From positions 1 to 48,732 of the IMG/VR virus record IMGVR_UViG_2541047965_000007: a stretch of DNA of 48,732 nucleotides, one strand, 5' to 3'. Numbering within the stretch: the stretch's first letter is position 1; every line of letters begins with the position of its first letter. The notes under the pieces are model-generated. The model did not search any database, was not told the origin of the DNA, and was given only the letters and a program-made list of their open reading frames with translations. Positions 7,644 through 46,613 of this stretch are shown here, one piece after another. Both the position numbers and the translations under genes were made by a program. This DNA is from a virus. Lineage: Duplodnaviria; Heunggongvirae; Uroviricota; Caudoviricetes.

Positions 7644-8816
7644 TTACGCGCTGACCTGGCTGGAGAAATTAACCAGGTACTGATCGGTGATGCGCTGACG
7701 CAGCATCAGGTTTTCAAGTGGCGGCACTGGCGTGTAGTCGTAGTCGATGGTGAGTTTTCCGGCTTTCAGCGTGTCTTTGTCGTTCACCGACTCATCCAGC
7801 CAGCAATCACCACCAATGAGATAGCCCTGACTGACCAGGCTGCGCATTTTGGCGCGGATACCCTCGATAATGTCGCGGGCCAGCGACGGATTCAGCGGTT
7901 TATCCACCGCCCACATGTGCGCTTCTGCCATCGTGTCCGTCAGCACCTGCGCCGTGCGGGTGTAGTTTTCGAAGGCAAAGAGCGGGTCATCACTCAGGCA
8001 GCGGGAACCCCAGAAGCGAAAACCGTCTTTGCGGATAAGGGTGGTGACGTCGTTCTGGTTCAGCAGTCCCGCATCGGTTGCCGGGTCCTGCAGATCCCAG
8101 AACACATCAGCAGAAATTCCGGTGACACCGTTAACGCCCACGTTGGACAGGCTTTTGTGCCATCCGGTCTGCTCGTCAATTTTGGCGCGCAGACCAAGCG
8201 CACGGGCGGTGGCATAAGCCGTTGCTTCGGCATTCAGCACCGTGTCCCAGCCAGTAAAGTCAGGCCAGATCAGCATCCCTTCGCGCTGGCTGAAGTTTTC
8301 ACGGTAAGTGATCGCCTCCTGTACCGTCTTGCAGCCATACGCTGACAGGTAAGCAAATCCACGCAGGCTTTGCGCCACGCTCAGCAACTCAGTAGCTACC
8401 GCCTTGGTGTCGTGGCCTGGCACGCCGAGAATGCGCGGTTTAACGCCGAGCTGAGCCTGTGCAGATAACAGGGCTTTCATACCTGTTTTTTTACCTTCAG
8501 CAGTCACTGCGCCGATGATATTGGTCGTGGTTTCGTCTTCCGTTTCACCCTGCGGCACACGCACAACAACGGTCACGGGTTTTGCCTGGTCAGCGATGGC
8601 ATCCAGCGAACGAGCCAGCGTGCCTGACTCACCCGCTTTACCGCTGGCAGTCAGCACATCAGTGATCAGCACGGGTTTATTAAGAGGAAACATTTTTGCA
8701 TCGGCATCATCGCCCGTGCAGACCATACCCACGATGGCGGTGCTCACCGTGGTAATGGATCGGGTGCCTTCGTTGACTTCAACAACGCGCACCCCGTGGT
8801 GGTAATCCTGAGCCAT
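7644..8816 (-). CDS. FI: tail sheath protein gpFI
   Basis: 390-aa ORF; P2 synteny and size. Confidence 0.9.
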
Positions 8817-8958
8817 AGTGGCGAACCTCCTGATTGGATTAGGCTTCGCCCTATGTTGAAGTGATTGTGCCTGACAAACAGCTAAGCGCAGTTGTATCGT
8901 TATTCATACAAAATGACGGTATTTGTCTGCTTTCAGGGATAATCAACATAATGCTGAT

Positions 8959-9531
8959 TCAGGGGGATTCATTGCTCTTATTTGCCGGAAATTTTCTATA
9001 AATTGTGGAAACACCCACATCAAAAATCAGTGCAATACGCTGTCTTGATTCTCCGGCCTCGAGTAAACGTCCAATCTGTGCCCACTGTTCGGTGGTCAAC
9101 TTAGGACGGCGTCCACCTACTCTGCCTTTAGCACGAGCTGCAGCCAGCCCCGCCCTGGTACGTTCAACTATCAGTTCGCGTTCCATTTCAGCCAGGGCCC
9201 CCATGACATGAAAAAAGAAACGGCCCATTGGGGTGCTGGTATCAATACTGTCAGTCAGGCTTCGGAAATTCACGCCACGCTGGCGCAGCTCTTCTATCAG
9301 CGTAACAAGATGCCGCATACTGCGCCCCAGTCTGTCCAGCTTCCAGACAACCAGCGTGTCTCCTGCCGATAGTGTCCTGAGCAGCTTTTTCAGCCCCGGT
9401 CTGTCGGACTTGGTGCCACTGATTTTATCCTCAAAAATCCGCTCACATCCCGCACAGTTCAGTGCATTGCGTTGCAAATCGGTGTTCTGGTCATTTGTTG
9501 ACACGCGTACATAGCCAATAAGCATGATCAT
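8959..9531 (-). CDS. serine DNA invertase, Hin/Gin/Cin/Pin family (likely start at Met3, 9525)
   Basis: Near-identical over long stretches to Hin-type invertases: GYVRVSTNDQNTDLQRNAL, TLVVWKLDRLGRS, MGRFFFHVMGALAEMERELIVERT, C-terminal HTH. Confidence 0.9.
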   Translation of the reverse strand: MIMLIGYVRVSTNDQNTDLQRNALNCAGCERIFEDKISGTKSDRPGLKKLLRTLSAGDTLVVWKLDRLGRSMRHLVTLIEELRQRGVNFRSLTDSIDTSTPMGRFFFHVMGALAEMERELIVERTRAGLAAARAKGRVGGRRPKLTTEQWAQIGRLLEAGESRQRIALIFDVGVSTIYRKFPANKSNESP

Positions 9532-9552
9532 CCCCCTGAATAAAAACCGGAG

Positions 9553-10074
9553 ATGATGCCAGTTAGCCGTTATCTCTGCATTTTCATAAACGTTGGTTTG
9601 GGAGAAGGCTCTGCATTACCTGTTGGTGTGCCTGTTCCATGGCCTTCAGCCACACCGCCAACAGGCTGGCTGAAATGCAACGGTGCGGCTTTTTCTGCTG
9701 AAGAATACCCGGAACTGGCAAAGGCTTATCCGACAAATAAATTGCCTGATTTACGTGGTGAGTTTATTCGTGGCTGGGATGACGGGCGCGGTATTGATGC
9801 AGGACGTGTTTTATTGAGCATTCAGACAGGGATGCTGGAAAAACACCGCCATATTGTTGTTGCCAATGATGGTTACGACACAAAAGATGAATGGGAACTG
9901 GCTACGATTTTCAAAAAGACATACACACAAGGACGGGGACTTGATGCCACAAATACAGGAGGGAGTCTGATCCCATCACCGACACTTCATTCACGAGGGA
10001 GTATCGGTAATACTGGCGGGAGTGAAACCCGTCCACGAAATATTGCATTTAACTATATCGTGAGGGCTGCATAA
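9553..10074 (+). CDS. alternative tail-fibre C-terminal cassette (silent in this orientation; would fuse to H constant region after inversion)
   Basis: ORF reads in frame through the crossover site (VGLGEGS...), with no plausible independent promoter or SD. Confidence 0.65.
   Translation: MMPVSRYLCIFINVGLGEGSALPVGVPVPWPSATPPTGWLKCNGAAFSAEEYPELAKAYPTNKLPDLRGEFIRGWDDGRGIDAGRVLLSIQTGMLEKHRHIVVANDGYDTKDEWELATIFKKTYTQGRGLDATNTGGSLIPSPTLHSRGSIGNTGGSETRPRNIAFNYIVRAA
9581..9606. repeat. 26-bp invertase crossover site, left
   Basis: ttttcataaacgttggtttgggagaa; its reverse complement shares its first 14 nt (ttctcccaaaccaa) with the site at 11423..11448; resembles hix/gix/cix sites with a central AA. 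Confidence 0.7.
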
Positions 10075-10676
10075 TGGATAACGCCGTATTAAATAGCGAG
10101 CTTATTGCCACGAAGGCGGGGAATATTACCGTCTATAACTATGATGGTAAAACTCGGGAATATATTTCTACTTCAAATGAATATCTTGCCATTGGTGTCG
10201 GTATCCCTGCATATTCCTGTCTGGATGAACCTGGTATACATAAGGCGGGTTATGCTATCTGCCGTTCGATGGATTTAAACTCATGGGAATATGTGCCAGA
10301 CCATCGCGGTGAAATCGTCTATAACACCGAAACGGGAGACGCCAAAGAAATCACAGCTCCGGGTGATTATCCTGAAAATACAACCACTATCGCCCCGTTA
10401 ACGCCATTCGATAAATGGGATGGTAAGAAATGGGTGACCGATACTGAGGCACAGCATAGCGCCGCAGTAGACGCGGCAGAAGTACAGCGTCAGTCACTGA
10501 TTAATACTGCAATGGCTTCCATTAGTCTGATTCAACTTAAATTGCAGGCCGGGCGGAAGCTGATGCAGGCAGAGACCACCCGACTTAACACTGTGCTGGA
10601 TTACATTGACGCGGTGACGGCAACAGATACCAGCACAGCGCCGGATGTCATCTGGCCTGAACTGCCGGAGGCGTAG
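10074..10676 (+). CDS. tail-fibre assembly chaperone (partner of alternative cassette)
   Basis: 200-aa ORF whose ATG overlaps the cassette stop; C-terminal WPELPE motif typical of tail-fibre assembly proteins. Confidence 0.7.
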   Translation: MDNAVLNSELIATKAGNITVYNYDGKTREYISTSNEYLAIGVGIPAYSCLDEPGIHKAGYAICRSMDLNSWEYVPDHRGEIVYNTETGDAKEITAPGDYPENTTTIAPLTPFDKWDGKKWVTDTEAQHSAAVDAAEVQRQSLINTAMASISLIQLKLQAGRKLMQAETTRLNTVLDYIDAVTATDTSTAPDVIWPELPEA

Positions 10677-11085
10677 GCCATTCAATATCTGGCACACTGG
10701 AGGTATCAACCAGCTCCAGTGCGTCCAGGTAATCCAGCCACAAATTATATTGCGCCAGTTCCTCGTCTTTCAGACGACCAATAGCGGCTTTACCGGGCCA
10801 TTGTTTACTGTTCATGTATTCGTTGGCCTGATTAAGCAATAATTGCCTTTCTGATTCTGCCTGTTGAATAAGTTCTTCATGTGATGGTGGAGGTATTAGT
10901 GCCCATGTGGGTAATCCATTCTCTCCTGCAACACGAATTTTGCCATCTGGGGGCGTATTTATTGCAAATTCATTATAAACATCATCACTGACAGCCAGAG
11001 CATCATCTGGCCATGAATTTGCATTAATGTAATCATCCTTAAGTGCAGGATTCACAAAAATGTTTAAAGATGGACTATAAAACAT
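10648..11085 (-). CDS. G: tail-fibre assembly chaperone gpG-like (expressed orientation)
   Basis: 145-aa ORF directly after H; C-terminal IEWPTPP motif; converges on and overlaps the alternative chaperone gene. Confidence 0.75.
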   Translation of the reverse strand: MFYSPSLNIFVNPALKDDYINANSWPDDALAVSDDVYNEFAINTPPDGKIRVAGENGLPTWALIPPPSHEELIQQAESERQLLLNQANEYMNSKQWPGKAAIGRLKDEELAQYNLWLDYLDALELVDTSSVPDIEWPTPPAVQAR

Positions 11086-11086
11086 A

Positions 11087-12484
11087 TTACACCCCTATAG
11101 CGATATAACGACCTAATACAGCGTTTGCAGCAGTCGCTATGCTTGAAAAACCGCGGAACTGATTTGATGTAATTGCAGAAGCCGACAGGATTCCTGCGCC
11201 TGAAGGTGTATGCCCCACATGACTAACTATCATTCCATAACATGCTGACGGAAAGGCAAAAGGAAAATCATTAAGATATCCGTCATCTTCACCACCAGAC
11301 CCACCAAATCTCGCCTGCCCCCACTGAATAATCAGTGTTCTCCGGGAACCTGAAATAATTAACGGAATCGTTACATACCCATTCAGACCAATGACACCCG
11401 ATGCAGTGCCAGCCAGAGATAATTCTCCCAAACCAAGGTATGTGAGAAGACCAGCTACATCCTTTCCACTCAAATTAGTCAGCGTATTGTCCAGCGGTTG
11501 TTTACCTGCCAGTGCATTAAGCATTGTCGTGGCAAAGTTCGGGTCATTCCCCAGCGCCGCCGCCAGTTCGTTCAGTGTATCCAGTGCCGCAGGTGCAGAA
11601 CCCACCATTGCTGCAATCGCTGATTTCACAAAAGCTGTAGTGGCAATCTGTGTATTGTTGACCGACTGTGCCGCAGTAGGTGCTGTTGGCGTTCCGGTGA
11701 GTGCCGGACTCGACAGCGGTGCTTTTAGTGCCAGCGCATTGTTAATGGTGGTACTGAATTTCGGGTCATTGTTAATGGCTGCGGCAATTTCTTTCAGTGT
11801 GTCCAGCGTGGCTGGCGCACCGTTAATCAGAGCAGTAATAGCGGCCTGAACAAACGCGGTGGTCGCAATCTGCGTGGTGTTATTCCCCTCCGCTGGCGTT
11901 GGCGCTTTGGGTGTTCCGGTCAATGTCGGGCTTTCTTTGGGTGCATACTGTGAATGCGGGTCCGGTGCGGCAAGATGTTTTGCCATCTTATCATCCACGA
12001 ACACCTTCAGCTCCAGTACCTTGTCATCCACATACTTGCGGGTTGCCAGCACGACGGCAGGGTCGATTTTCAGGGTGATATTGTCCGTGCTGCTGGTAAT
12101 CAGCACCATGCGCACGGTCTGGGTGCGCCCGCTGCCTTCAGCCAGTTGCGGCTTATAGCTTTCCGGGCAGTTGCCTACGGCAATCAATGCCCCGGACTCA
12201 TCAAACAGACCCACTTCACGTATCCACCAACCACCCTCATTTTCAGGGATCACCTGTTCAGCAATAATCTGGCTGCTGTTCTGCGGGTCGATATAGAGCA
12301 TATTCAGCGCAGCCCGGCGTTTCTCATTTACCAGTGCCGTCTGCTTTGCGTCCGGCGTCGGCAATGCTCCGCCGCCATCGCCCACCGCCATATGGGTAAT
12401 TTTTAGCGGCACACCGAGCGCGGCGGCGCTGGCAAGTTTCGCCGCGCCAATATCCGTCAGCAGGGTATAAAATTTTGTGCTCAT
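11087..12484 (-). CDS. H: tail-fibre protein gpH (constant N-terminal region plus currently selected variable C-terminus)
   Basis: 465-aa ORF with repeated fibre-like segments; position between I and G as in P2. Confidence 0.85.
   Translation of the reverse strand: MSTKFYTLLTDIGAAKLASAAALGVPLKITHMAVGDGGGALPTPDAKQTALVNEKRRAALNMLYIDPQNSSQIIAEQVIPENEGGWWIREVGLFDESGALIAVGNCPESYKPQLAEGSGRTQTVRMVLITSSTDNITLKIDPAVVLATRKYVDDKVLELKVFVDDKMAKHLAAPDPHSQYAPKESPTLTGTPKAPTPAEGNNTTQIATTAFVQAAITALINGAPATLDTLKEIAAAINNDPKFSTTINNALALKAPLSSPALTGTPTAPTAAQSVNNTQIATTAFVKSAIAAMVGSAPAALDTLNELAAALGNDPNFATTMLNALAGKQPLDNTLTNLSGKDVAGLLTYLGLGELSLAGTASGVIGLNGYVTIPLIISGSRRTLIIQWGQARFGGSGGEDDGYLNDFPFAFPSACYGMIVSHVGHTPSGAGILSASAITSNQFRGFSSIATAANAVLGRYIAIGV
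11423..11448. repeat. 26-bp invertase crossover site, right, inside tail-fibre gene H
   Basis: ttctcccaaaccaaggtatgtgagaa, inverted relative to the 9581..9606 site; encodes LGLGE in H, and the same peptide is encoded at the other site in the alternative cassette. Confidence 0.7.
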
Positions 12485-13086
12485 GGATTCACTCTCATTG
12501 TGTCAATAACATGGACCGCCCCGCCTTCATGCGCGGTGCCGCCGGAAATAATTGTTTCGTTGATATACGGATAGATCGTGATTTCTTCGCCAAGATAACT
12601 GGCGGCTCCCACCCAATGCGGACCGCTGGTCTGCAGATTGATGGACATGCCGATCATGTGACGGCTACATGGTTTGGCATCGCTTATCAGTCGCTCAAGT
12701 TCCAGATAGGTATCTTCAGTGATGCCCTGGTCCTGCACACCAATGTCCAGACGAAACGTGCCCGGTGTTTCTCCGGTCTGCCACCACTCAATAATGCGGA
12801 TCAGGAAGCCGAACGGCTCCACCACCCGCCGTACGGCACTGGTGGTTCCTTTGTGCTGATGAATATAAAAAGCATCCTTCACTACCTGGCGTTTGACGCT
12901 TTCTGTCCAGCCCTCGTCCCAGCGATCCACAGAGAACGCCCAGGCGAGATAAGGCAGGAAACTGACCGGACAGGTTGCCGGATTCCACAAGTCACGCAGT
13001 GACACCTGCAGATCAGAAATCCCGCTACAGGTTTGCGCCAGTCGGCGCTCCAGTGGCGTTGAACCCGGTGGCAGCAGACTATTCAT
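12481..13086 (-). CDS. I: baseplate protein gpI
   Basis: 201-aa ORF; P2 synteny. Confidence 0.8.
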   Translation of the reverse strand: MNSLLPPGSTPLERRLAQTCSGISDLQVSLRDLWNPATCPVSFLPYLAWAFSVDRWDEGWTESVKRQVVKDAFYIHQHKGTTSAVRRVVEPFGFLIRIIEWWQTGETPGTFRLDIGVQDQGITEDTYLELERLISDAKPCSRHMIGMSINLQTSGPHWVGAASYLGEEITIYPYINETIISGGTAHEGGAVHVIDTMRVNP

Positions 13087-23758: not shown

Positions 23759-24607
23759 TTAAACACCGGCACCAATGAAACCGCCATATGAATCTTCTTC
23801 AAGGCTGATGTATTCTACCCTCCATTGATCCATCCGCCTCAATGCATACAGGGAGAAATGAGTATCAGCAACAGCTATGCACGTATTCAATTCTATAAGT
23901 TCTGAATGCCCCAAGGTTGGATCACCATAAAACTTATAAAACAAAGCCTTTAGATCAGAACATGTTTGTTCAGCCGCTCTTCTGGCATCGGGGCCACCTT
24001 CAGTTGCATCATAAACAACATTGATAGAAAGCTCATATGGTATGCCTTCCTCAAGATCGTTAAATCTTTCTTCGCCCAAATCGAAAAAAACTCCGATCAA
24101 ATGCTCTGCGTTTGTGGCGATAATATCCGCAACTTCTTTTTCGAAAATAAACTTTTTATCCTCGTCGTAAGCCCGCAAGCGCTCTTCAAACGAGTTAGGA
24201 AACGCTGGACGACCATACTTAGCAGCTAACCATTGCTTAAGAGCTTGTTTCTCTTCTGTGCTAATGGAGAATGCTGGATCGTTTTCCTCACAACAGAAAG
24301 CTTCTTTAGGAATGATGACTTTCCTTTCATGCCGGAGCTCTACTGCATTCTTCTTCGCACTTTCTGGGTTTTCAAAACATAGATCGAGTATTCTCGGATG
24401 CTTAGCTCTTTTCATCCTGCTTGACCCCTTTTTCAAGGGGCCAAACATCAGTTCCACGTTTTTTTCTGAATTACTCTGTAAATCACAATCATGCGTTATA
24501 ACTACAACTTTATGGTTCGTTTCATCAGGCTGCAGAATTCCAAGTGAAACGGCATCATCATGTTTAAGTACATGCCCCTGACGCCATGATGTTCCTCGTA
24601 CCAACAT
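23759..24607 (-). CDS. hypothetical cargo protein (282 aa), no domain recognised
   Basis: Last gene of a three-gene minus-strand module between Q and cos; AT-richer than the phage core. Confidence 0.6.
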   Translation of the reverse strand: MLVRGTSWRQGHVLKHDDAVSLGILQPDETNHKVVVITHDCDLQSNSEKNVELMFGPLKKGSSRMKRAKHPRILDLCFENPESAKKNAVELRHERKVIIPKEAFCCEENDPAFSISTEEKQALKQWLAAKYGRPAFPNSFEERLRAYDEDKKFIFEKEVADIIATNAEHLIGVFFDLGEERFNDLEEGIPYELSINVVYDATEGGPDARRAAEQTCSDLKALFYKFYGDPTLGHSELIELNTCIAVADTHFSLYALRRMDQWRVEYISLEEDSYGGFIGAGV

Positions 24608-24616
24608 AAATGTGAT

Positions 24617-25279
24617 TTATTCCTCTACCGTTCCAGGAATTGAAATAGATGACTTCCAATCATCTGTCGGTTTCGCCTTGCTTGCTAAGTAATTGGCCGA
24701 TTCAGCAGCAGCATTCATCGCTTTAGCTTCATCAATCAATACCTGAACTGCCCTATTCCAATCCTCACCTTCTTTTACTACGTCCATTAATGACTTACCA
24801 TTAAATGCTTTCATTTTCACCAATAGCTTCGCATCATGGAGTCCAGCTTTGGAAAAAGAGTCAGCGACATTACTAAGGTTGGTAATGAATTGCACTTTTG
24901 AAGCATCATCAGGCTGGTTCTCCCCTGACAACCATTTATAGAGAGCCTGCCGAGTTATCCCCAAATCCTTTGCCAGTTCTGACATTGATGGAGACAGCAC
25001 TTCTCGAATATTAGCTAAATGTTGGGCAACATTCCTGACATCAACCTCAGGAGAAATTGCAGGCGTGTACGTTGATTCTATGGAATCAAATGCAAACTGA
25101 ACCCTTGGCTGAACATACTGACGCCATTGCTTATAAGCATTTACAGGGTATGAAGCCCCCGTACCAACTAATAGTAAAGATGCGGCGACAGCAACAACAC
25201 CTGATACACATGAGCTTGACTGCAAATTTGGAGAATATCGATCTACAGAGCCTATGCTTCCGGTGGGAATTGCATACAT
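24617..25279 (-). CDS. hypothetical protein with N-terminal hydrophobic segment and XRE-type helix-turn-helix (start at internal Met)
   Basis: SD ggaggtga 8 nt upstream of ATG at 25279; hydrophobic VSGVVAVAASLLLVGTG; HTH-like MSELAKDLGITRQALYKWLSG. Confidence 0.6.
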   Translation of the reverse strand: MYAIPTGSIGSVDRYSPNLQSSSCVSGVVAVAASLLLVGTGASYPVNAYKQWRQYVQPRVQFAFDSIESTYTPAISPEVDVRNVAQHLANIREVLSPSMSELAKDLGITRQALYKWLSGENQPDDASKVQFITNLSNVADSFSKAGLHDAKLLVKMKAFNGKSLMDVVKEGEDWNRAVQVLIDEAKAMNAAAESANYLASKAKPTDDWKSSISIPGTVEE

Positions 25280-25298
25280 TTTAGTCACCTCCGTTGTT

Positions 25299-26108
25299 TC
25301 AGTGCCATTTAGTACGGGCAAAATCTGAAACCATGCCTTCAAATGCTTCTTTAACTTTACTATGCAACGAAAGAATCTGTTTTTCAATTAACTGCAAATC
25401 AGTTGACATGTTGCCTTCAACATAATGATCTGTATCAATTATTGCGTGCATACGATGCTCTGTGTTACTAAATCTCGGCAACGGCAGTAAACCATTAGGA
25501 ATCATATCTGGCGGAAAACCTAGCTGACCATTCATCTTATGTATTCGTGAAACCATAAATCCATTAGGGATCAATGGCTCAACACATGTCTGATATACGG
25601 ACTCTTGTATAGACTGTATTGGCGTCCATCCGAAATCAACACCATGAAGTTCCTTTACAAGATACTGCTCAATTGTTTCGCTTTTCTCAGGAAACACAGC
25701 ATCCAAATATCGAAGCCCAATCCGACTTAACAGCGATGGCTTAGCAAATTCTAGAACTTTGCTCAGACCAAGTATCAATGACGAGATGAAAGATACATGG
25801 TTATCATAATATGTTGTATGGAACGTAATGAAATCGTTGCCTAAAACAAAACCAGATCTTCTATCTGCATCAATCATCAACCAACTTGTCACAGGCTCAA
25901 ATGAATGTACCGGTGGCTCATTGGGGTTTTTTATTTCAAATTTCAACTGAGTTGTATTGGAAACCTCAAATAAAGGAAATCCCTCAACTCTTAGCGCATC
26001 TTGTATGTCTGGAACATACTTACTCATTGCAGCTATTGGAGTAAACTTTACCTGTACCAATGCATAGTAAACGGGCGCATTGGACATACGTTCGCTGTTA
26101 GTACTCAT
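25299..26108 (-). CDS. hypothetical cargo protein (269 aa)
   Basis: First gene of the module; N-terminus MSNAPVYYALVQVKF reminds me of a conserved-hypothetical family seen in defence islands, but this is unverified. Confidence 0.6.
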   Translation of the reverse strand: MSTNSERMSNAPVYYALVQVKFTPIAAMSKYVPDIQDALRVEGFPLFEVSNTTQLKFEIKNPNEPPVHSFEPVTSWLMIDADRRSGFVLGNDFITFHTTYYDNHVSFISSLILGLSKVLEFAKPSLLSRIGLRYLDAVFPEKSETIEQYLVKELHGVDFGWTPIQSIQESVYQTCVEPLIPNGFMVSRIHKMNGQLGFPPDMIPNGLLPLPRFSNTEHRMHAIIDTDHYVEGNMSTDLQLIEKQILSLHSKVKEAFEGMVSDFARTKWH

Positions 26109-27057: not shown

Positions 27058-29472
27058 TTAATACAGGTTCCGCCACTGATCATCTTCCTGCAAACGCTGG
27101 TTCCGATAGAAGATACGCAGGCCTGCTCCTGACGGAATACTGCCTCCGCGAAGGAGTAAATCGACCTCTTTCTCGCTGCCATCAAATCCTCTGGACTTCA
27201 GCTCATACACGAGCTGCAGTCGCTGATGGTCTGTAATTCGCTGTTTGTAGTCTTTACGCCGTTTCGGTTTCACCAGGCGTAACCTTGCTGCCAGTTCCCG
27301 GCGCTCTTTTTTGCTCATACTGTGCAGGTAATCGTGCAACTCCTTGTCATCCATGCTGGTAATGTCCGTTCTGGGGTCCCCATCAGCTGATTTATCTTTC
27401 TCCTGTTGGTTCAAATTTTCAGCAAGGGGACAGTTATTGCCACGAGTCCAAGGGGCGCAAGCGCCCTGGTCGGCTGCCGCCTCCTGAACGTCAACGGCCT
27501 TACGAACCATTTTCCACTTCACTGCATGAGTGCAGATCTTGCCCTCTGCAATGGGTGACCAGATGCCATAAATACGAATACCGTGATCGCCATAGGCGGT
27601 TGGCTCTTCGTTTATTTCATAAGCGGTTCTGATGAGGTGATATTTGCGGGGAACCAGTACGCCGCCCTGCTTCATGATGTAGGTGGCAAAACAACCAGCA
27701 TCAGCAGCAGCCAGGATGGCATCAAGGCGCGGGTTATCCAGTACCGGCGCACCTGCTTTTTTGTCACCCTGTTGCCTTGCCGCCTGACCAGCCAGCAATC
27801 GCAGTTCACGGTAAGCCTGACGCCCCGGAATGCCAAAGAAGCGGAATTGCTGAACACGATGCAGAGACGCCCAGGCATTAACGTATTCAGCGTTATCACG
27901 CAGGGATTTACCCGTTTCCTTACTGATCTCGCCAGCCAGACCACGCCCGTCAATATTCTTACTGATATATTTCGCAATGTAGCTTGTCGGCGTTCCTTTG
28001 CGCGGGTTTATCAGCTCAGACTTAAAGCGTGGCCCCGTGTTATTGCCCAGCTCCTCGCGGTCTTCACGGATGGCAAACTTACGCAACAATGCAGTAATGG
28101 CGCGGCGGTCTTTTTTGCGCATGAAACACAACAGGTGCCAGTGAACTGTGCCGTCATGATGCGGCTCAGCCACCCGCACGCCATACCAGCGCAACCCGGC
28201 TTTGTGCATAGCCTTACGAAATGCAGCAAACATGCCGACCAGATAATCGCTGCTTTGTCTTACTGTCGCGTTGGTCCAGGTCGGGTTTGGCCTGCCGTTA
28301 TTTAGCGTGGAATGGAAACGTGACGGACAGGTGATGGTGTAGAAAACGGCGCAGTCACCACGCATTTCCGCAATAAGCTCCAGGCCTTTAACACAGGCCA
28401 TCATCTCGTTGCGGCGATGCGCCGGGTTGCTGCTGCTGGCGTTTACCACATCCTCCATGTTCAGCGTGTCGCCGTCTTCGTTCACCAGTTCATGAGAACG
28501 GAAAAACTCCAGCGACTTACGGCGCTGCTCACGTTTATGCATCACGGCTTCATAGCTGACATAGGGAGATGCTTTTTTGCTGACCAGGCAGACAGCACGC
28601 AACTGCTCTTCCCGCCATTCGCAACGCATCTTCCATAATTTCCGATACCACCAGTCGGCGCACAGCATACGCGCCAGCGAACCCGGAATGAGTTCATAAG
28701 GCACAGGTTTGCGGCGGTTTCTTTTCCGGCGGAGTTGCTCAAACGCAGGCGGTATGACATCCAGTCGCAGGGTTTCTGCAGCCACCTTTTCCCATGTCTT
28801 GCGGATTTCTTCTGGCTTAACATCATCGGAGGCGTACAAATCACCACAAGCGGCATCAAGACACATGCTCATATGCGCAGCGACAAGGGTAGACAGGCGT
28901 TTCACCTGATCCTGACTCATTTCAGGCAGGATCAGCAGACCGTCCAGCCCTTCATGGCTTGCCATAAAACGAAAAGATGCAGATAGCTGGCTGTCGCGTA
29001 CATGCTCCAGTCGTTCCAGACATGGCTTAATCGTCTCACGTAAATAGCGGGAATAAGCCTTTGGCCTGCCCAGGCTACTGAAATATTCAATACGTTGCAT
29101 CAGCGGCTTGCTGATATGGGAAGGCTGGGCGTTGACGTCAGCCAGAATGACCATGACTGGATTAAAACGCTGCTGCTCATGCGCCATCTTTGCCCGGCTA
29201 ATGAGCTTATCCTGCTCCATTTTACGTTGGACAGGATCACGGGATTCATTAAAGAAATAACGCTCCCAGACCTGATCACTCAGTGCCTCGCGGCGCAGTT
29301 GTTCCTGCTCGTTATCGGTAGCGTACAGAGTGATCAGGTTTGAAAGCGCAGAAACCGGCGCAACTTCCGCCGGGTCCAGATAAGGGTTAATGGCCTTTTT
29401 CGGGCTGTTCCATGAGAATGCTGCGGCGACCTCGTTAAAGCCGCTGCAGTTGTTCATATCAGCATGGCTCAT
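27058..29472 (-). CDS. A: rolling-circle replication initiator gpA
   Basis: 804-aa ORF with HUH-like [11 protein letters not shown] and catalytic-Tyr region YIAKYISK; P2 gpA position. Confidence 0.9.
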
Positions 29473-30398
29473 GCACGCACTCCGTACACGGCAGAACTAT
29501 CCACGCCACGCGAAGGATCAAATCCCACCCAGCAGCGCGGCCCGGAAACAGCGATGATTTCTGTTGCAGATTTACTCTCACCAGCTGCTACACCGATGCT
29601 GCGTTTTGCCTTGATGTAGTGGTGAGTAAAATTGCGATACAGCGAACGGATCAGGGATGTATCACTGTTAGAAACAATGACCGGATGTCCTTCTGATGAC
29701 CGATGTTCAAGAACGGATGCCAGGTGATACTGGTCATCTTCAGTGAAACCATCAGTGTGATAGCCGGAAAACGTACCGTCATACGGCGGATCGCAATACA
29801 CCACATCCCCCACCTGCAGCATCGCCAGCGTTTCATCAAAGCTTGCGCAGATAAACGTTGCACGCTGGGCTTTCTCTGCAAATGCGCGAATTTCTTTTTC
29901 AGGGAAATACGGATTTTTATAATTACCGTACGGAATGTTGAAATGCCCGCTCTTGTTATAGCGACATAATCCACGGTAACCATGACGATTGAGATACAGG
30001 AAATATACCGCTTTCATGAAATCAGTAATTTCAGTGGAGTAATTAAACTCCTGCCTTATGTTGTAATAAGCCACCTCCCTGTTTGCGATCTCAAATAAAA
30101 CTCTGGCGCGAGATATAAACGATTCACAATCAGCGGCAACCTTTTTATAGAGGTTGATTAAATCAGGATTAATATCCGCAACCAGATAGCTGGGGTAATC
30201 CGTCTCCATCATCACAGCACAGGAACCCGCGAAAGGTTCAACCAGTCGCGGGCCAGCAGGAAGGTGTTTTTTCAGTTCGGACATAATGGCGGTTTTATTT
30301 CCCGCCCATTTCAGGATGGTGCTCATACAGCACCTCCTGCAATAACATATCCTAAAGCTTCTAATGGGGTTAATGGGCGAATTGATAGCATCACCCAT
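29469..30398 (-). CDS. DNA N6-adenine methyltransferase (Dam-like)
   Basis: 309-aa ORF with DPPY motif ([11 protein letters not shown]). Confidence 0.8.
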
Positions 30399-34599: not shown

Positions 34600-34644
34600 A
34601 TGTAGGAATTTCGGACGCGGGTTCAACTCCCGCCAGCTCCACCA
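34600..34644. repeat. att core copy 2 (45-bp duplicate of the ssrA 3' end)
   Basis: Exact copy of 1015..1059; junction between prophage and satellite. Confidence 0.85.
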
Positions 34645-34828: not shown

Positions 34829-36037
34829 GTGGCAAGAACGACACGCCCCCTGACCAACACAGAAGTTCTGCGCGCTAAAGCGTTAGAAAAGGATCTAACG
34901 TTGCATGATGGCGATGGTCTTTTTCTGCTCGTTAAAACGAACGGTAAGAAGTTATGGCGTTTCCGTTATCAACGTCCAGCAACAAAACAGCGAACAATGA
35001 TGGGGCTAGGTGCCTTCCCCACCCTTTCACTTGCTGACGCCCGACGGTTAAGAGCGAATTACCTTTCCTTGTTAGCCAACGGAATTGACCCGCAAATTCA
35101 AGCTGAAATTGCAGTGGAACAGCAGCAAATCGCACTGGACAGTATTTTTTCAACCGTCGCCGCTAACTGGTTCCAGCTTAAAAGCAAAAGCGTTACCCCT
35201 GATTACGCGAAAGACATTTGGCGTTCACTAGAAAAAGATGTATTCCCTGCCATCGGTGAGATCCCAGTTCAGCAAATCAAAGCCCGAATGCTTGTTGAAG
35301 CCCTAGAGCCTATCAAAGCACGTGGGGCACTAGAGACGGTACGTCGTCTGGTGCAGCGTATTAATGAGATAATGATTTACGCCGTAAACACAGGTCTGAT
35401 TGATACCAATCCAGCATCAGGTATTGGGATGGCCTTTGAGAAACCTAAAAAGCAAAACATGCCGACGCTCCGGCCAGAAGAATTACCGAAGCTGATGCGT
35501 TCTTTGATTATGTCTAATCTGTCTGTTCCGACACGTTGTCTTATTGAGTGGCAACTACTGACCCTTGTACGCCCTTCTGAAGCCTCTGGTACTCGGTGGG
35601 CAGAGATCAATCTCGATGCAAAGCTCTGGACGATTCCAGCCGAACGGATGAAGGCCAAACGTGAGCACATTGTTCCTCTATCTCCTCAGGCATTAGAAAT
35701 TCTGGAAGTGATGAAACCAATCAGTGCTCATCGTGAACATGTTTTTCCGAGCAGAAATGACCCAAAGCAAGCAATGAATAGCCAGACTGCAAATGCTGCT
35801 TTAAAGAGAATTGGATATGGTGGTAAATTAGTAGCTCATGGTTTACGGGCAATTGCTAGTACATGTATGAATGAAGCAGAATTTAATCCTGATGTGATTG
35901 AAGCTGCATTAGCTCATATTGAAAGTAATGATGTTAGAAAAGCCTATAACCGCTCAACCTATCTAGAGCATCGAAAAGAATTGATGAACTGGTGGGGTAT
36001 GCATTGCACTTCTGCAAAAAATGGGATTGTTAGATAG
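34829..36037 (+). CDS. intA: P4-type tyrosine integrase (GTG start)
   Basis: 402-aa ORF recognised as P4/CP4-57-type integrase; SD aaggag 7 nt upstream of GTG. Confidence 0.9.
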   Translation: MARTTRPLTNTEVLRAKALEKDLTLHDGDGLFLLVKTNGKKLWRFRYQRPATKQRTMMGLGAFPTLSLADARRLRANYLSLLANGIDPQIQAEIAVEQQQIALDSIFSTVAANWFQLKSKSVTPDYAKDIWRSLEKDVFPAIGEIPVQQIKARMLVEALEPIKARGALETVRRLVQRINEIMIYAVNTGLIDTNPASGIGMAFEKPKKQNMPTLRPEELPKLMRSLIMSNLSVPTRCLIEWQLLTLVRPSEASGTRWAEINLDAKLWTIPAERMKAKREHIVPLSPQALEILEVMKPISAHREHVFPSRNDPKQAMNSQTANAALKRIGYGGKLVAHGLRAIASTCMNEAEFNPDVIEAALAHIESNDVRKAYNRSTYLEHRKELMNWWGMHCTSAKNGIVR

Positions 36038-36078: not shown

Positions 36079-36441
36079 ATGGATCTTAGTTTCTTTAAGA
36101 GCAGCTTGAAATACAATGCAACAGCAACGATTTTCTGTGTTTTTGCATTATATTTATCAATGCCTATTTTCGAAAATGTTAATTTCATATCGAGCCATCC
36201 AATTATCGTCTCAGTACTATTTACTTTACTTGTAAATTCTTTACTTTTAATAATTTACTGGACATCCCATACAAAAAAAACAAATTCAAAGTCGGGTGTA
36301 AAAGGAAACAAAATAATCGGAAACAAGGCAAAAAACATTAACATACTTTCCAATGGAGAAATAACTAAAAACATCGTCAGTAATAATGATAGTAATGGTG
36401 ACATTAATATTGGGCAGGTCTTCAAAAATGGAAAAAAATGA
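36079..36441 (+). CDS. small membrane protein with two TM helices and Asn/Lys-rich repeats; probably the N-terminal part of a frameshifted gene
   Basis: SD ggag upstream; hydrophobic ATATIFCVFALYLSMPIF and IIVSVLFTLLVNSLLLIIYW; ends at TGA right after an A7 tract. Confidence 0.55.
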   Translation: MDLSFFKSSLKYNATATIFCVFALYLSMPIFENVNFISSHPIIVSVLFTLLVNSLLLIIYWTSHTKKTNSKSGVKGNKIIGNKAKNINILSNGEITKNIVSNNDSNGDINIGQVFKNGKK

Positions 36442-37009
36442 AAGCCTAGTCATTTCTGATAATGAAATAACTAATAATAATCCTGGGAGAGATCTGAACA
36501 TTGGGACACACATAAGTTTCAATGAGGTTAAGAATCGGAGCAATGCATTAGCAAATTTATTAGAACGTTCTAAAAAACTTTGTGAAACAGATCAAGAATA
36601 TAAATACATGCTCGAAGAGTTACAAGAGTATCTTCAGCCCCGTCCAGGTCGAAAAATCATAGGGTTAGAAGGAAAACTAAAAGAAGGCAATCGACTTGAT
36701 TTGTTAGAAGATGCAGCTTATTTAGAAAATAAGTTTGCAAGACGAGTTAGCAAGCATCAGTTTTCCATATCAGAAGAAATCATTTACTGTCATTGCTTAA
36801 GTAAAATAAACTCATCTTTTTCACAATATGTCAAACCACTGTTTAAAAACACAGTAAACACTGCTATAATTGACAGAGTCATTTATGACAGAATAGTTGA
36901 ACCTCTTTATGAAGAAGTGTCTGAAGTTAGTACCGCTATTTCTAGCGAATTAATTAGAGGCATGATTTTCTTCTTAACGGGTAAATGTCACTTACGGTGG
37001 GTTGGTTAA
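36428..37009 (+). CDS. hypothetical helical protein; probably the C-terminal part of the same frameshifted gene
   Basis: Begins with a repeat (SDNEITNNN...DLNIG) homologous to the end of the upstream ORF but in the +1 frame; stop overlaps next start (TAATG). Confidence 0.55.
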   Translation: MEKNESLVISDNEITNNNPGRDLNIGTHISFNEVKNRSNALANLLERSKKLCETDQEYKYMLEELQEYLQPRPGRKIIGLEGKLKEGNRLDLLEDAAYLENKFARRVSKHQFSISEEIIYCHCLSKINSSFSQYVKPLFKNTVNTAIIDRVIYDRIVEPLYEEVSEVSTAISSELIRGMIFFLTGKCHLRWVG

Positions 37010-37500
37010 TGATTATTTATCATCCATTTAAAGATGCAAACCATTGCTCATATCGTATTATAAGCTTGCTATATAAAAACAATAACAAGATTAGGGATGA
37101 GCACCTTAATTTTATGGATTTCTATTACCTTTTCCCTTGTCAAATAAAGAACATTGATGGATGGCCGCGTTCAAATTCGAAACTTGCACGCCGAATTTCT
37201 ACTATAGAGGACACTTATGAAACAATTGAAAATCCTCGTAGAATTTTCTTTGAATTAAATATAATACGTAGAAACACCTTAGCACATTTATTTTCGAAGG
37301 GCATTCTATCCTTGATAGATGAATATATCCACCTGAATATTGAAAGAATACCAACATCCCTGATTAATACGCTTGAAGCTGACACCTTTAGAGCCACCTT
37401 CGAATTTACTACCATTGCTAACGAAATACCCAAACTAGCAATCAAAGGTAAAAAAGGCCTTAAAGCAAAAACTAATTTAATGGAATATCGTTATGATTAA
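37009..37500 (+). CDS. hypothetical small protein (163 aa), middle component of the cargo operon
   Basis: Translationally coupled on both sides (TAATG at 37007..37011; ATGATTAA at 37493..37500). Confidence 0.6.
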   Translation: MIIYHPFKDANHCSYRIISLLYKNNNKIRDEHLNFMDFYYLFPCQIKNIDGWPRSNSKLARRISTIEDTYETIENPRRIFFELNIIRRNTLAHLFSKGILSLIDEYIHLNIERIPTSLINTLEADTFRATFEFTTIANEIPKLAIKGKKGLKAKTNLMEYRYD

Positions 37501-39412
37501 AAAACCGTCATATCTCAAGTTAAATAGATTAGTCATAACTAAGGCTGGTAAACAGTTATATGACGAAAAATTTCACGATGGTATAAACATAATCAGAGGG
37601 GAGCACTCTGTAGGAAAATCAACAATTTTAGATATGATTTTTTATATTTTAGGCGGAGAATTAAAAAAAGACGACTGGAAATATCCAGCCGATAAATGCT
37701 CGAATGTTAATGCAGAGATTACAATTAATGACCGCATTATTACCTTAACCAGGCCAGTGGATCCTAGTGGCGCAGCTCCTCATATTAAAATCTATGAAGG
37801 AGAGTATGATAAGGCAATGAAAGATGCAGATGGCTGGCTAGACTATGGCTCAAGGAGAAGCAATGAGCGATTAAGCTTCTCAGAAATGATGTTTGAACTT
37901 TTCGATTGGGGACAATATAAATCTGACAGCCATCAAAATTTAACCATGCATCAAATAATGCGACTCATTTATTTAAGTCAATCATCAGATTCTAACAGAA
38001 TATTTCGCAAAGAGTCTACTCGCTCTGACAATGAAAATACCAGGACAGCTATCGCTGAGTTTCTTTTCGGTCTCGATGATTTGGAAACTCACTCAGTTCG
38101 TCAAAATTTATTGAAGTATGAGAGAGATTATGAAAATACCGGAACAGAATTAAGAGCATATTTCGAGCTTTTAGGAAATGACTCTAATCTAACTGTTGAT
38201 ATAATTAACGAATTATTGAATGAAAAATACACTGAACTATCCAAAATAGACTCAAAGAAAGAAATTTTATTGCGTTCAACAGATAATATTGATGGTAACA
38301 ATGAATATAACCTAGCTATCGAACGCAATGACATCCTTTTAAAAATACAATCACTAACAAACAAAATATCACTTAAAAACAATGAGTTACATTCAATAAA
38401 GACCGAAATCCAGGACTGTTTGCTTTTTGGAAAAAATTTAGCATATCGTTTAAAATCTTTGAATGAATCACAAGAAACATATAAAGGCTTAGGTCGAATT
38501 TCTTTTGAATACTGCCCTTGTTGCTTAACACCAATATCAGAACACGATAACACTGATAGTGGTTGCGCACTTTGCAAATCAACAGTCAACAATTCCTCAT
38601 TAGAGGAAAAATATATTGAATCACTGAACGAACTGCAATATCAACAGCGTCAAAATAATAAAATTATAGAAAAACTATATAGTTCAGCAGAATATATAGA
38701 GGGCTATATTAAAGAGCTTCAAAAAGAGCTTGAAAGCTTACACAATAGATTGTTTGAAATCAATTTAGTCTCAAATTATCGAGAATTGGCTATAACTTCA
38801 ATCGTAGAAGAAAGAACTGCAAAATTAATTGAAATCAACTCCCTGCAAGATAAAATTGATTCAATAGCTAAAGTTGACGACTTAAAATCAAAACGTGAAG
38901 ACATCGCAAAGCAAATGGAAAAATTTCGTTCACGAATAACCGCTCTTGAAGCAAAAAACAAGCGCAGAAAAGAATATGTTTACTCAAAACTATCTGAATT
39001 TTCCACTTTTATTCTTGAAGGAGACTCGGGGAATGAAGAGCTATTTAAAACAGCAACTCAACTTTCCTCAGAGATTGACTTTGCAAAAGATCGCTGGCTT
39101 TTGAATGAACGGGTAAATTACTCAGATAGTTCAAACGTTGTCAAAAAAGCAGCTCTACATTTAGCATTTCTTATTTTTTCAATCGTTGATTCAGCTTGCC
39201 GATATCCTCGTTTTTCCATTATGGACTTCGAATGCGGGGATATAAATGAAGCTCGAAGCCATAACCTTCAAAAATTAATCACTACAAGCCTTAGTAACTT
39301 TAAAGGTTTTCAGCTTATTATGACTACATCTAAAATTGATTCATCTTTGAACAACAACACTTACGGGGTTGGTCGTTATTATGACAAAAATGACTACATT
39401 TTGAAGATTTGA
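37493..39412 (+). CDS. Rad50/SbcC/SMC-like ABC ATPase with coiled coil and Cys4 cluster
   Basis: Walker A GEHSVGKST at 37598..37624 in an SMC-head-like N-terminus; long Glu/Lys/Leu-rich middle; CPCC-x16-CALC at 38513..38575; C-terminal FSIMDFE Walker-B-like motif. Confidence 0.75.
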   Translation: MIKKPSYLKLNRLVITKAGKQLYDEKFHDGINIIRGEHSVGKSTILDMIFYILGGELKKDDWKYPADKCSNVNAEITINDRIITLTRPVDPSGAAPHIKIYEGEYDKAMKDADGWLDYGSRRSNERLSFSEMMFELFDWGQYKSDSHQNLTMHQIMRLIYLSQSSDSNRIFRKESTRSDNENTRTAIAEFLFGLDDLETHSVRQNLLKYERDYENTGTELRAYFELLGNDSNLTVDIINELLNEKYTELSKIDSKKEILLRSTDNIDGNNEYNLAIERNDILLKIQSLTNKISLKNNELHSIKTEIQDCLLFGKNLAYRLKSLNESQETYKGLGRISFEYCPCCLTPISEHDNTDSGCALCKSTVNNSSLEEKYIESLNELQYQQRQNNKIIEKLYSSAEYIEGYIKELQKELESLHNRLFEINLVSNYRELAITSIVEERTAKLIEINSLQDKIDSIAKVDDLKSKREDIAKQMEKFRSRITALEAKNKRRKEYVYSKLSEFSTFILEGDSGNEELFKTATQLSSEIDFAKDRWLLNERVNYSDSSNVVKKAALHLAFLIFSIVDSACRYPRFSIMDFECGDINEARSHNLQKLITTSLSNFKGFQLIMTTSKIDSSLNNNTYGVGRYYDKNDYILKI

Positions 39413-39778: not shown

Positions 39779-40351
39779 TTACACAGACTGATGTGATGCC
39801 AGTTGCGCACTTTTACGCGAAAAAATCATGTTCTGCGCAGGAGTGAATTTTTCACGGCTGTCATCCACCGAAGCCGCGTCAGGCCTGAATCCGATGGTCG
39901 TTAAAATGTCGCTATCCTGTGCGGAATAATTAATTTTTTCACCCTTCGCAAGCCAGGACAGGAGGGCTTCACGCAGGGCATCTGTGGCACGCTGTATGGC
40001 ACAGTTTCGGGCAATGGCCGTCAGCTCACTGTAGCCCATCAGCTCCGGTGCCAGTGCCGCCGCCAGTGCTGTGCCGTGCTGCTGCATAAAATCATTCAGC
40101 CGGTCGCGGATGCTGATGTGCTGAACGGCTTCATGCGAACGAATATAACGACCGGCGGCCTGATTCACCTGCCATTTTCTGACTTCGATAATATTGCGTA
40201 ATTCGTCCAGGCGACTGACGTTTCTGCCTTCTCCTGACAGAAGCCGCAGATATTCCTGTTCGGCCGCAGCCAGCTCATTTTTGCGTTGCAGCCATGCTGC
40301 TTTGTTATTCTGACAGGTGTCAAAGGCCTGCTGTAAGGCTGTGCTTTCCAT
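39779..40351 (-). CDS. psu: polarity suppression protein Psu (capsid decoration)
   Basis: 190-aa ORF recognised as Psu; gene order psu-delta-sid. Confidence 0.85.
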   Translation of the reverse strand: MESTALQQAFDTCQNNKAAWLQRKNELAAAEQEYLRLLSGEGRNVSRLDELRNIIEVRKWQVNQAAGRYIRSHEAVQHISIRDRLNDFMQQHGTALAAALAPELMGYSELTAIARNCAIQRATDALREALLSWLAKGEKINYSAQDSDILTTIGFRPDAASVDDSREKFTPAQNMIFSRKSAQLASHQSV

Positions 40352-42217: not shown

Positions 42218-42484
42218 ATGCAAGCTGTTTTTTCTTCCCCGTCTCCCGCCCCTGTGACGCCACTGATGCCGCTGCCGGACATCACGCAGGAGCGTTTTTT
42301 ACGTCTGCCGGAAGTGATGCACCTGTGCGGCCTGTCACGCTCGACCATCTACGAACTCATCCGTAAGGGGGAATTTCCGCCGCAGGTGAGTCTTGGCGGT
42401 AAAAATGTGGCCTGGCTGCACTCTGAAGTCACCGCATGGATGGCCGGGCGCATTGCCGGACGCAAACGGGGGTACGACGCATGA
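42218..42484 (+). CDS. AlpA/Vis-type prophage regulatory DNA-binding protein
   Basis: 88-aa ORF with [25 protein letters not shown] and C-terminal W-rich tail. Confidence 0.75.
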
Positions 42485-43027
42485 TGATGCCCGCTCTGCA
42501 AAAAGTCCCTTTTTCTGGCTTGCCTTTTTCCGGCATTTGCGGATATAGTTTTTCCGCTGCCGCAAAATCGGCAGCCGGGCGTAGGAACCCGAGTTACTTC
42601 AAGGCGACATATGACGCGCCATGCGTCTTTTTTTACGTCGTTGCTTCGGCACACCTGTTTTTCTGGCTGTGGTTTTTAAACCGTAGCCTCTGTCAGATAA
42701 TGGTGGTCCGGGCGGGGCAGCCTTCGGGCTGGCCGGTTTCCTTGAAGGCCGGTATTCCTACCCCCGTCCGGGCTACCACCCATGAGCGTAGGAACTCCAG
42801 TGGTAGCTGTAACTGTTACTTCAAGGAGACTGCCATCATGGCTACAACCCTTACCCCCTCACACCCTGAATTTGTCTTTGTGTTTGCTGCTGTCCGTCGC
42901 GCAGACCGTCATCCCCGTATCTGTATGCTTCGCACCGTCGCCGGTGATGAACGCAGTGCCCGCCGTTCCCTTGTCCGTGACTATGTGCTCTCCCTTGCTG
43001 CCCGTCTGCCGGTGATGGGGGTGTCCC

Positions 43028-43315
43028 GTGCGTAATAAAAAAGCCCCTCAGACCGTCTCAGCGCGTCATGACGCCCGTGAACACCTCAGCATTGAGGCTT
43101 ACCATAAGCTCAACCGCGCCAGCGCCGTATCCCAGTTTGTTGGGGGTGATTTGATTCACCGTGAACTCTCCGGCCTGCATCAGCTCTACATTCCGCATAT
43201 TTTCAGCTACCTGAATGAAGATATTGATTTTGTGCTGAATGAGCTGAAAGCCAAAGGCCTGTGCCGCGATTTTCTCGCCCAGCAGAAAGACCGGGGAGAC
43301 AAGACGCATGTTTGA
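43028..43315 (+). CDS. small protein at the position of P4 epsilon
   Basis: 95-aa ORF in the operon leading to alpha. Confidence 0.5.
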
Positions 43316-46600: not shown

Positions 46601-46613
46601 TCCCGACATCCCC

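Follow-up and report, generated by a model that had tools for sequence, protein, structure and literature searches.

A P2-family E. coli prophage, apparently intact judging by its sequence, very probably (about 90%) carries a two-state host-range switch driven by a DNA invertase, in which inversion of a short segment would exchange the tip of the tail fiber. The module is of a known kind, an already well-described phage device, and lies in a stretch of 48,732 nt (hereafter the 48.7-kb window); its features are listed in Table 1. In line with the preliminary description, the prophage is P2-like (Peduoviridae), with structural and replication genes of P2 type in P2 order (D-U-T-E-FII-FI / G-H-I-J-W-V) between 45-bp direct att repeats (1015-1059 and 34600-34644). 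Domain matches include Phage_cap_P2 (4e-152), GPA (2e-127), GPD, and Baseplate_J, and the prophage also encodes a gpP-type terminase, a portal protein, a CI repressor, and an integrase. It is located at the 3' end of ssrA, where prophages of the Fels-2/SopE-phi group reportedly integrate as well.

Table 1. Features of the invertible tail fiber module (positions in the window).
Feature	Position	Strand	Details
Serine DNA invertase, 188 aa, Pin/Gin/Cin family	8959..9525	-	Pfam Resolvase 2e-53, HTH_7 1.5e-15
Putative Fis-dependent recombinational enhancer	9436..9507	.	Gene nt 19-90, inside invertase 5' end; predicted
Left 26-bp crossover site	9581..9606	+	Adjoins invertase, head of silent cassette; core TT 9593-9594
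Invertible segment	9593..11436	.	1,844 bp from core to core
Silent tip Hv', 159 aa	9595..10074	+	Pfam Collar domain 1e-15
Silent assembly chaperone, TfaE-like, 200 aa	10074..10676	+	Pfam Caudo_TAP 3e-31
Expressed assembly chaperone, gpG/TfaP-like, 145 aa	10648..11085	-	Pfam Caudo_TAP 7e-35
Expressed tip Hv, H residues 351-465, 115 aa	11087..11434	-	Pfam Gp53-like_C 3e-11
Right 26-bp crossover site	11423..11448	-	Within gene H, codons L347-E354; core AA 11435-11436
Tail fiber gene H	11087-12484	-	P2-type fiber N-terminus
H constant part, residues 1-350	11435..12484	-	Pfam Phage_tail_fib N-terminal domain 6e-65

The two arms previously described as inverted sites sharing a 14-nt half are present as such and form the top-ranked inverted repeat of the region. 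The arms agree at 22 of 26 positions, with an identical inner 14 nt (TTGGTTTGGGAGAA) and with outer half-sites that differ between left and right at 4 of 12 positions. Like the sites of Hin, Gin, Cin, and Pin, they are two inverted, imperfect 26-bp dyads with an identical 2-bp core (TT/AA), and they align with gix, cix, and the e14 sites. When up to 3 mismatches are allowed, a consensus for Hin/Gin-type sites matches at only these 2 places in 48.7 kb, and the same pattern recovers exactly the annotated sites of Mu (gix), P1 (cix), and e14, its center coinciding with the annotated crossover points of all three. A chance inverted repeat can be ruled out, given that 0.01 matches were expected by chance and that the sites are where a flipped relative has its breakpoints (see below). 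No third crossover site was found in the window with either the 26-bp consensus (up to 3 mismatches) or the 14-nt half (up to 2 mismatches); with two sites only in both searches, a shufflon or a Min-type multi-inversion system is ruled out.

Two details of the preliminary description need revision. The bounded segment is there, but the size of roughly 1.87 kb given for it corresponds to the outer ends of the sites, while the exchanged unit extends from core to core and is accordingly smaller. Similarly, of the two sites at which the peptide LGLGE had been read, only the right one encodes it; the silent one reads V-GLGE, and inversion regains the Leu codon (C|TT) from the constant side.

The right site had been placed inside tail fiber gene H, and indeed it interrupts this gene after codon 350, downstream of a constant part that is colinear with relatives of both orientations. 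The H promoter and codons 1-350 are fixed, and inversion would therefore swap the C-terminal tip. Flipping the segment in silico produces an uninterrupted fiber of 509 aa, compared to 465 aa as found, with Hv' joining the constant part; the crossover thus lies in the fiber ORF, and the constant N-terminus is in frame with either of the two opposed cassettes. Comparison of the variable regions with known receptor-binding domains, as had been suggested, sets a Gp53-like_C or pyocin-foot-like tip against a Collar or gp37-like one. The expressed tip Hv weakly matches the foot of the R1-pyocin fiber (6CXB, 8e-4) and is 38% identical to the C-terminus of e14 StfP, while the silent tip Hv' matches the tip of T4 gp37 (2XGF, 5e-17) and shares 62% identity with e14 StfE. 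Homology between the two tips was rejected, as no sequence similarity was seen when they were compared. With such unrelated sequences, the two tips may bind different receptors.

As proposed earlier, either cassette has a tail fiber assembly chaperone of its own downstream, both small ORFs there encoding Caudo_TAP proteins. The two chaperone genes overlap convergently by 29 bp, and their products are alike in the C-terminal third only (34% identity). The gpG/TfaP-like protein and e14 TfaP share 50% identity and nearly the same C-terminus, and the TfaE-like protein is 87% identical to e14 TfaE; a PDB sequence search with the latter returned no matches. Upstream of the silent tip, we found a 14-codon leader ORF (start at 9553/9556) with a poorly spaced Shine-Dalgarno motif, and a sigma-70 promoter scan, which performed at background level, revealed no convincing promoter for the silent cassette. 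It is reasonable to regard this cassette as promoterless.

Next to the left site lies an intact gene for a serine invertase of the Hin/Gin family, again as described before. Its product combines an N-terminal catalytic domain of resolvase type, in which Ser 9/10 is the nucleophile and the Arg and Asp residues are conserved, and a C-terminal helix-turn-helix (HTH_7; residues 140-183 of the 190-aa ORF) that matches the DNA-binding domain of Hin (1HCR, 7e-9). Residues 1-184 match the structures of Mu Gin (3UJ3/4M6F; E 8e-93), and overall identity is highest to e14 PinE (85%), followed by P1 Cin (77%) and Mu Gin (74%). Residues Y5, R7, S9, D64, R65, R68, H106, and M114 are invariant among this invertase, Gin, Cin, and PinE; a missing catalytic Ser, named earlier as a sign of an inactive enzyme, is thus not the case, with Ser9 present in a full-length ORF. 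The reading frame is open as far as 9531 (190 aa), but the true start is almost certainly the homologous ATG at 9525, because it gives the N-terminus MLIGYVRVS... known from Gin, Cin, and Pin and is preceded by a GGGGGA Shine-Dalgarno motif 5 nt upstream. NCBIfam yielded sub-threshold matches only for the invertase and no specific names for the fiber or chaperone proteins.

The enhancers of Hin, Gin, Cin, and Pin consist of two Fis sites with a spacing of about 48 bp and typically lie within the 5'-terminal part of the gene for the invertase. Our candidate enhancer spans the same nucleotides of the gene (19-90) as the enhancer annotated in P1 cin, with DNA identities of 76% to P1 and 87.5% to pinE, though in coding sequence that is conserved anyway. 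Only two 15-mers of the form G-N13-C occur in the first 110 nt of the gene (nt 22-36 and 71-85, or 9490-9504 and 9441-9455 in the window), 49 bp apart and placed just as in gin and pinE; they are putative Fis sites, and inversion may depend on Fis and the enhancer here.

The background-level sigma-70 scan revealed no promoter for the invertase gene either. Together with the 4 of 12 differing positions in the outer half-sites, this would fit a frozen relic of an e14/Mu-type ancestor that no longer flips here, with its invertase unexpressed or its sites degraded and with the orientations in other genomes resulting from old events or from cassette exchange via homologous recombination. We consider this very unlikely, as the invertase gene is not truncated and has retained all catalytic residues, imperfect outer halves are normal in gix, cix, and hix sites, and the left site is identical at 26/26 positions to an e14 site that was experimentally shown to recombine, with identical inner halves. 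Furthermore, related invertases elsewhere in the cell could act in trans, like PinQ of the K-12 Qin prophage, which inverts the e14 P segment (PMC12529663). Since the core sites do not differ from those of e14, prophages that share a cell can probably cross-flip each other's segments with their invertases.

That two alternative tips arise by inversion, as the preliminary description proposed, is further supported by complete E. coli genomes, which contain both orientations. With the sequence as given, 69 E. coli records align at 80% coverage or more (best at 100% coverage in one piece, 97.4% identity), and with its flipped version 97 records do so (best at 100% coverage in one piece, 97.9% identity). 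In E. coli PEC422, for example, 9593-11439 of the window aligns in reverse at 99.7% identity between colinear flanks, and a 509-aa fiber is annotated. The breakpoints (9593-9606 and 11423-11439) fall within the 14-nt shared half-sites. Among related E. coli prophages, both orientations of the segment thus occur, joined at the site cores; as the nearest database relatives are around 97% to 98% identical, these two orientations are seen between lineages and not within one clone. The flanks of PEC422 are only 95.8% to 97% identical to the window, indicating that horizontal cassette exchange also occurs, as the frozen relic would have it. However, breakpoints exactly at the site cores in flipped relatives are unlike the expected result of homologous exchange. 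An active switch remains our preferred reading, under which the segment would also flip in the source strain.

In the mechanism that we propose, invertase dimers would bind both 26-bp sites and would be joined by Fis on the putative enhancer within the invertase gene (around 97 bp and around 146 bp from the left crossover), forming an invertasome on supercoiled DNA. Ser9 would cleave at the TT/AA dinucleotide in the middle of each site, half of the tetramer would turn by 180 degrees, and religation of the DNA would leave 9593-11436 inverted. The last 115 aa of the 465-aa fiber—a gp53-like lectin-type foot—would thereby be exchanged for the 159-aa gp37/StfE-like collar-needle tip of a 509-aa fiber, and the matching chaperone gene would be placed behind the tip. 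Each phage coming from a lysogen population would then display one of two receptor specificities.

A different role has been reported for the orthologous e14 segment with the same core repeat (Kirigo et al. 2025, PMC12529663), and the switch could by analogy be chiefly an anti-phage device of the lysogen and not a host-range tool of the phage. Flipping would fuse the leader ORF (from 9556) to the gp53-like tip, resulting in a 128-aa StfE2-like protein that masks outer membrane receptors and stops the adsorption of T2-like phages; an ORF for a 128-aa "gp53-like domain-containing protein" is indeed annotated in the flipped PEC422. We nevertheless find this extremely unlikely as the main function, given that the tip shares just 38% identity with that of e14 StfP, that the leader ORF has no promoter in the scan and a poorly spaced Shine-Dalgarno motif, and that the module lies within a complete P2-type morphogenesis operon, which makes a host-range role the simplest reading. 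The two roles are compatible with each other. That one and the same inversion does double duty in an intact, inducible P2-like prophage, varying the host range of the phage and protecting the host through a leader-tip StfE2-like fusion that blocks T-even-type adsorption, is an idea that we deem very unlikely. In that case, the core repeat being the same as in e14, the state of the switch could be set in trans by Pin-type invertases of other prophages in the cell.

As a probable host-range switch, the module has slight importance apart from correct annotation. What automatic pipelines call here as two "extra" small ORFs for a tail fiber and a chaperone, plus a "recombinase family protein", is one functional unit, and both the 465-aa and the 509-aa product of the fiber gene are legitimate. 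Which orientation an assembly shows is arbitrary, and this bears on host-range prediction, prophage typing, and false calls of "structural variants" or "pseudogenes".

The comparison with known systems supports a switch of the Mu G-segment/P1 C-segment type, as the preliminary description had it, but its nearest relative is found in E. coli K-12, namely the e14 P segment and its invertase PinE (stfP-tfaP-tfaE-stfE-pinE). This orthologous module has the same gene order, the same 29-bp convergent chaperone overlap, a crossover at the ...GLGE codons as well, and a similar size (1,797 bp compared to 1,844 bp here; PMC12529663). Our left site is identical to its stfE-side site over the full 26 bp and our right site over the inner 14 nt, and both PinE and PinQ act on the e14 repeats (TTGGTTTGGGAGAAGG) in flipping (PMC12529663). 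However, the fiber gene of e14, a defective lambdoid remnant, is truncated, whereas the prophage studied here has a full P2-type gpH N-terminus and a complete P2-like tail operon, and the expressed tip and chaperone have diverged (38% and 50% identity). A parallel arrangement in another host genus is found in the P2-like Fels-2/SopE-phi phages of Salmonella, where the pin homologue fin lies beside an invertible tail fiber C-terminus; in Fels-2, strains LT2 and LT7 carry the fin segment in opposite orientations (PMC7953296). Inversions of e14 and of segments of P2-like prophages in EPEC E2348/69 were shown by sequencing and PCR (Goldberg et al. 2014, PMC4272514). One tail fiber locus of the P2-like prophages there has two variants as in our case, while another has three repeats and four variants, compared to the two sites of our window. 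Mu G/Gin and P1 C/Cin follow the same logic, with Sc as the constant part, Sv and Sv' as the alternative tips, and U and U' as the chaperones. Their sites are likewise 26 bp long, the invertase gene lies immediately beyond the segment, and its 5' end contains an enhancer (putative here). Their segments of 3 to 4.2 kb have much longer variable parts, and the phage types, outer halves of the sites, and tips differ. Shufflons, which use a tyrosine recombinase, and the Min system of plasmid p15B also diversify the C-terminus of an adhesin or fiber by site-specific inversion, but with several crossover sites and many isoforms as opposed to the two sites and two isoforms here.

The prophage under study had been described as P2-like, and it indeed carries P2-family capsid, terminase, portal, GPA, GPD, Baseplate_J, CI repressor, and integrase genes in P2 order between the two copies of a 45-bp direct repeat (1015–1059 and 34600–34644) that is the 3' end of ssrA. 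At the left end, smpB-ssrA is 99.6% identical to many strains of the host, E. coli. Five genes lie within 8959–12484 (see table), and the invertase module is located between the chaperone gene at the position of P2 gene G and the sheath gene FI. A TGT-N12-ACA dyad (8893–8910, TGTATCGTTATTCATACA) in the gap that separates the invertase stop from the start of the sheath gene matches the Ogr-type late-promoter motif of P2; it would be the promoter of the FI operon, and the module would then be inserted between the two late operons.

Features of the invertase module and of the element behind attR
Feature	Position	Strand	Remarks
Tail-fibre gene H	11087–12484	minus	465 aa; N-terminal PF12571 (6e-65), C-terminal Gp53-like_C
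Chaperone gene after H	10648–11085	minus	Caudo_TAP
Silent-cassette ORF, opposite direction to H	9553–10074	plus	phage tail Collar domain
Second chaperone gene, after Collar ORF	10074–10676	plus	Caudo_TAP
Serine recombinase gene	8959–9531 (as ORF)	minus	Resolvase + HTH_7
Integrase of the satellite-like element	34829–36037		
ABC-3C CTD9 domain protein	36386–37009		
LmuB-like SMC ATPase	37493–39412		639 aa; PADLOC LmuB 7e-36
Psu	39779–40351		
Ash-family protein	42436–43035		
C4 / isrK / c4-a1b1 RNAs	42543–42783		
P4 alpha-like primase-helicase	44234–46567		

The inverted 26-bp sites of the preliminary description (9581–9606 and 11423–11448, here I1) rank first among the region's inverted repeats, matching each other at 22 of 26 positions with an identical inner 14 nt (TTGGTTTGGGAGAA). 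A search of the 48.7-kb window with the generic Hin/Gin consensus TTNTCNNAAACCNNGGTTTNNGAGAA, allowing up to 3 mismatches, returned only these two sites (shuffle expectation 0.01), and the same pattern hits the crossover points annotated in Mu (gixL/gixR) and P1 (cixL/cixR) as well as the sites of e14. The paired sites are therefore real and not a product of chance. In an alignment of eight sites, the left one is identical to the stfE-side site of e14 (26/26).

The adjacent gene encodes, from the ATG at 9525 (MLIGYVRVSTNDQ; GGGGGA 5 nt upstream), a protein of 188 aa whose residues 1–184 match solved Mu Gin structures (E 8e-93), in agreement with its earlier assignment to the Hin/Gin family; it is 85% identical to PinE of e14, 77% to P1 Cin, and 74% to Mu Gin. 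The catalytic serine, whose absence had been named beforehand as an example of an inactive invertase, is present as nucleophile S9 and, like Y5, R7, D64, R65, R68, K46, H106, and M114, invariant among these enzymes. The spacing from crossover site to invertase start resembles that of gixR and gin in Mu. In the P1 record, the enhancer for Cin is placed at cin nt 19–90; the homologous stretch of the window (9436–9507) shares 76% identity with P1 and 87.5% with pinE. The first 110 nt of the invertase gene contain only two G-N13-C 15-mers (nt 22–36 and 71–85, 49 bp apart), at positions shared with gin and pinE. These fit a Fis enhancer lying ~97 and ~146 bp from the left crossover, which we call putative since this DNA also codes for the best-conserved portion of the invertase.

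The right site spans codons L347–E354 of H (LTYLGLGE), with the central dinucleotide (11435–11436) supplying the second and third bases of codon Leu350. The peptide LGLGE previously read at both sites is thus found only here, whereas the left site, in the plus-strand cassette frame, encodes F-I-N-V-G-L-G-E. When 9593–11436 (1,844 bp, core TT/AA) is inverted in silico, residues 1–350 of H continue in frame into GLGEGSALPVGVPVPWPS...IVRAA, and the fibre becomes 509 aa long instead of 465 aa, as expected for the proposed alternative C-terminal cassette on the opposite strand. This silent cassette lacks a fibre N-terminus of its own, having only 14 leader codons, which start at an ATG (9553/9556) with a poorly spaced GGAG motif 0–3 nt upstream, and no convincing promoter was found, consistent with its description as promoterless.

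The expressed tip (H residues 351–465, Gp53-like_C) matches the R1-pyocin fibre weakly but specifically at its LPS-binding foot (6CXB, 8e-4) and is 38% identical to the StfP C-terminus of e14. For the silent tip, the match is to the T4 gp37 fibre tip (2XGF, 5e-17) and extends to the terminal ...NIAFNYIVRxA motif. Its identity to e14 StfE is 62%; the first ~80 residues are the same in both, and the middle part is mosaic. Comparison of the two tips revealed no similarity, and the chaperones behind them (TfaE-like, 87% identity; TfaP-like, 50%) have only their C-terminal third in common. Inversion is thus predicted to swap two structurally different receptor-binding modules, each with its own chaperone, as noted in the first reading. 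The two chaperone genes run towards each other and overlap by 29 bp (10648–10676), just like tfaP/tfaE of e14, so that the C-termini …PDVIWPELPEA and …PDIEWPTPPAVQAR are encoded by opposite strands of the same DNA.

Using public genomes as a natural experiment, we queried 8700–12600 as given and flipped in silico, which retrieved 69 and 97 E. coli records, respectively, with at least 80% coverage; the segment occurs in both orientations, as its presumed invertibility implies. The best matches, each in one piece with 100% coverage, were ST95-32 (as given, 97.4% identity), annotated with the same arrangement as the window, and PEC422 (flipped, 97.9%), annotated with a 509-aa fibre and a 128-aa "gp53-like" ORF at the silent position. 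By BLAST, 9593–11439 aligns to the PEC422 locus (L001 3891–5737) in reverse at 99.7% identity, while 8700–9606 (invertase/sheath flank, 97.0%) and 11423–12600 (fibre constant part, 95.8%) align forward. These block limits place the breakpoints within the shared 14-nt half-sites, which is the signature of site-specific inversion at these sites; the two orientations are a difference between lineages and not one observed inside a single clone. As a block, the cassettes appear to be passed from prophage to prophage.

Elsewhere in the prophage, a D12-class N6-adenine DNA methyltransferase gene (29469–30398, minus strand) adjoins the replication gene A homologue. Three minus-strand ORFs (282, 256, and 269 aa; 23759–26108) lie between portal gene and replication region, at the position of the variable tin/old locus of P2; Pfam and PADLOC gave nothing for them beyond weak HTH, and they may be uncharacterised cargo. 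Directly behind attR, a second mobile element (34645–~47000) looks like a P4-type satellite, so that a potential helper and its satellite stand in tandem at ssrA. The stretch separating its integrase from psu (36079–39412) is likely anti-phage cargo, and its genes suggest a Lamassu-like system. Two direct repeats of ~100 bp downstream of the primase gene (~46610–46720, …GTGAACAATCCACTGTTCACCCTTCACC…; ~46795–46900, …GAATGTTCACCCTTCACCC…) may be a P4 crr/ori-type repeat.

Inversion of tail fibre segments was previously shown by sequencing for e14 and for P2-like prophages of EPEC, and for e14 also by PCR (PMC4272514). In Salmonella Fels-2, the pin homologue fin sits beside a fibre segment whose orientation differs between LT2 and LT7 (PMC7953296). 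PinE and PinQ flip the e14 repeats TTGGTTTGGGAGAAGG, and one chimera resulting from e14 flipping was reported to block T2 adsorption (PMC12529663); these repeats are identical to the core of the window's sites. That the silent-position ORF has a StfE2-like defence role is the least ordinary reading and strikes us as very improbable. Overall, the features of the preliminary description are confirmed and its reading as a host-range switch is supported. The inversion switch is a textbook mechanism in a very common type of E. coli prophage, with a "DNA invertase" annotated at the same position in related phage records (e.g., Cartapus, pro483, and 500465-1). The e14 P segment (stfP-tfaP-tfaE-stfE-pinE) is the orthologue of this module, which is here grafted onto a P2-type fibre and shares its working principle with Mu G/Gin and P1 C/Cin, the type of switch to which it had been assigned.
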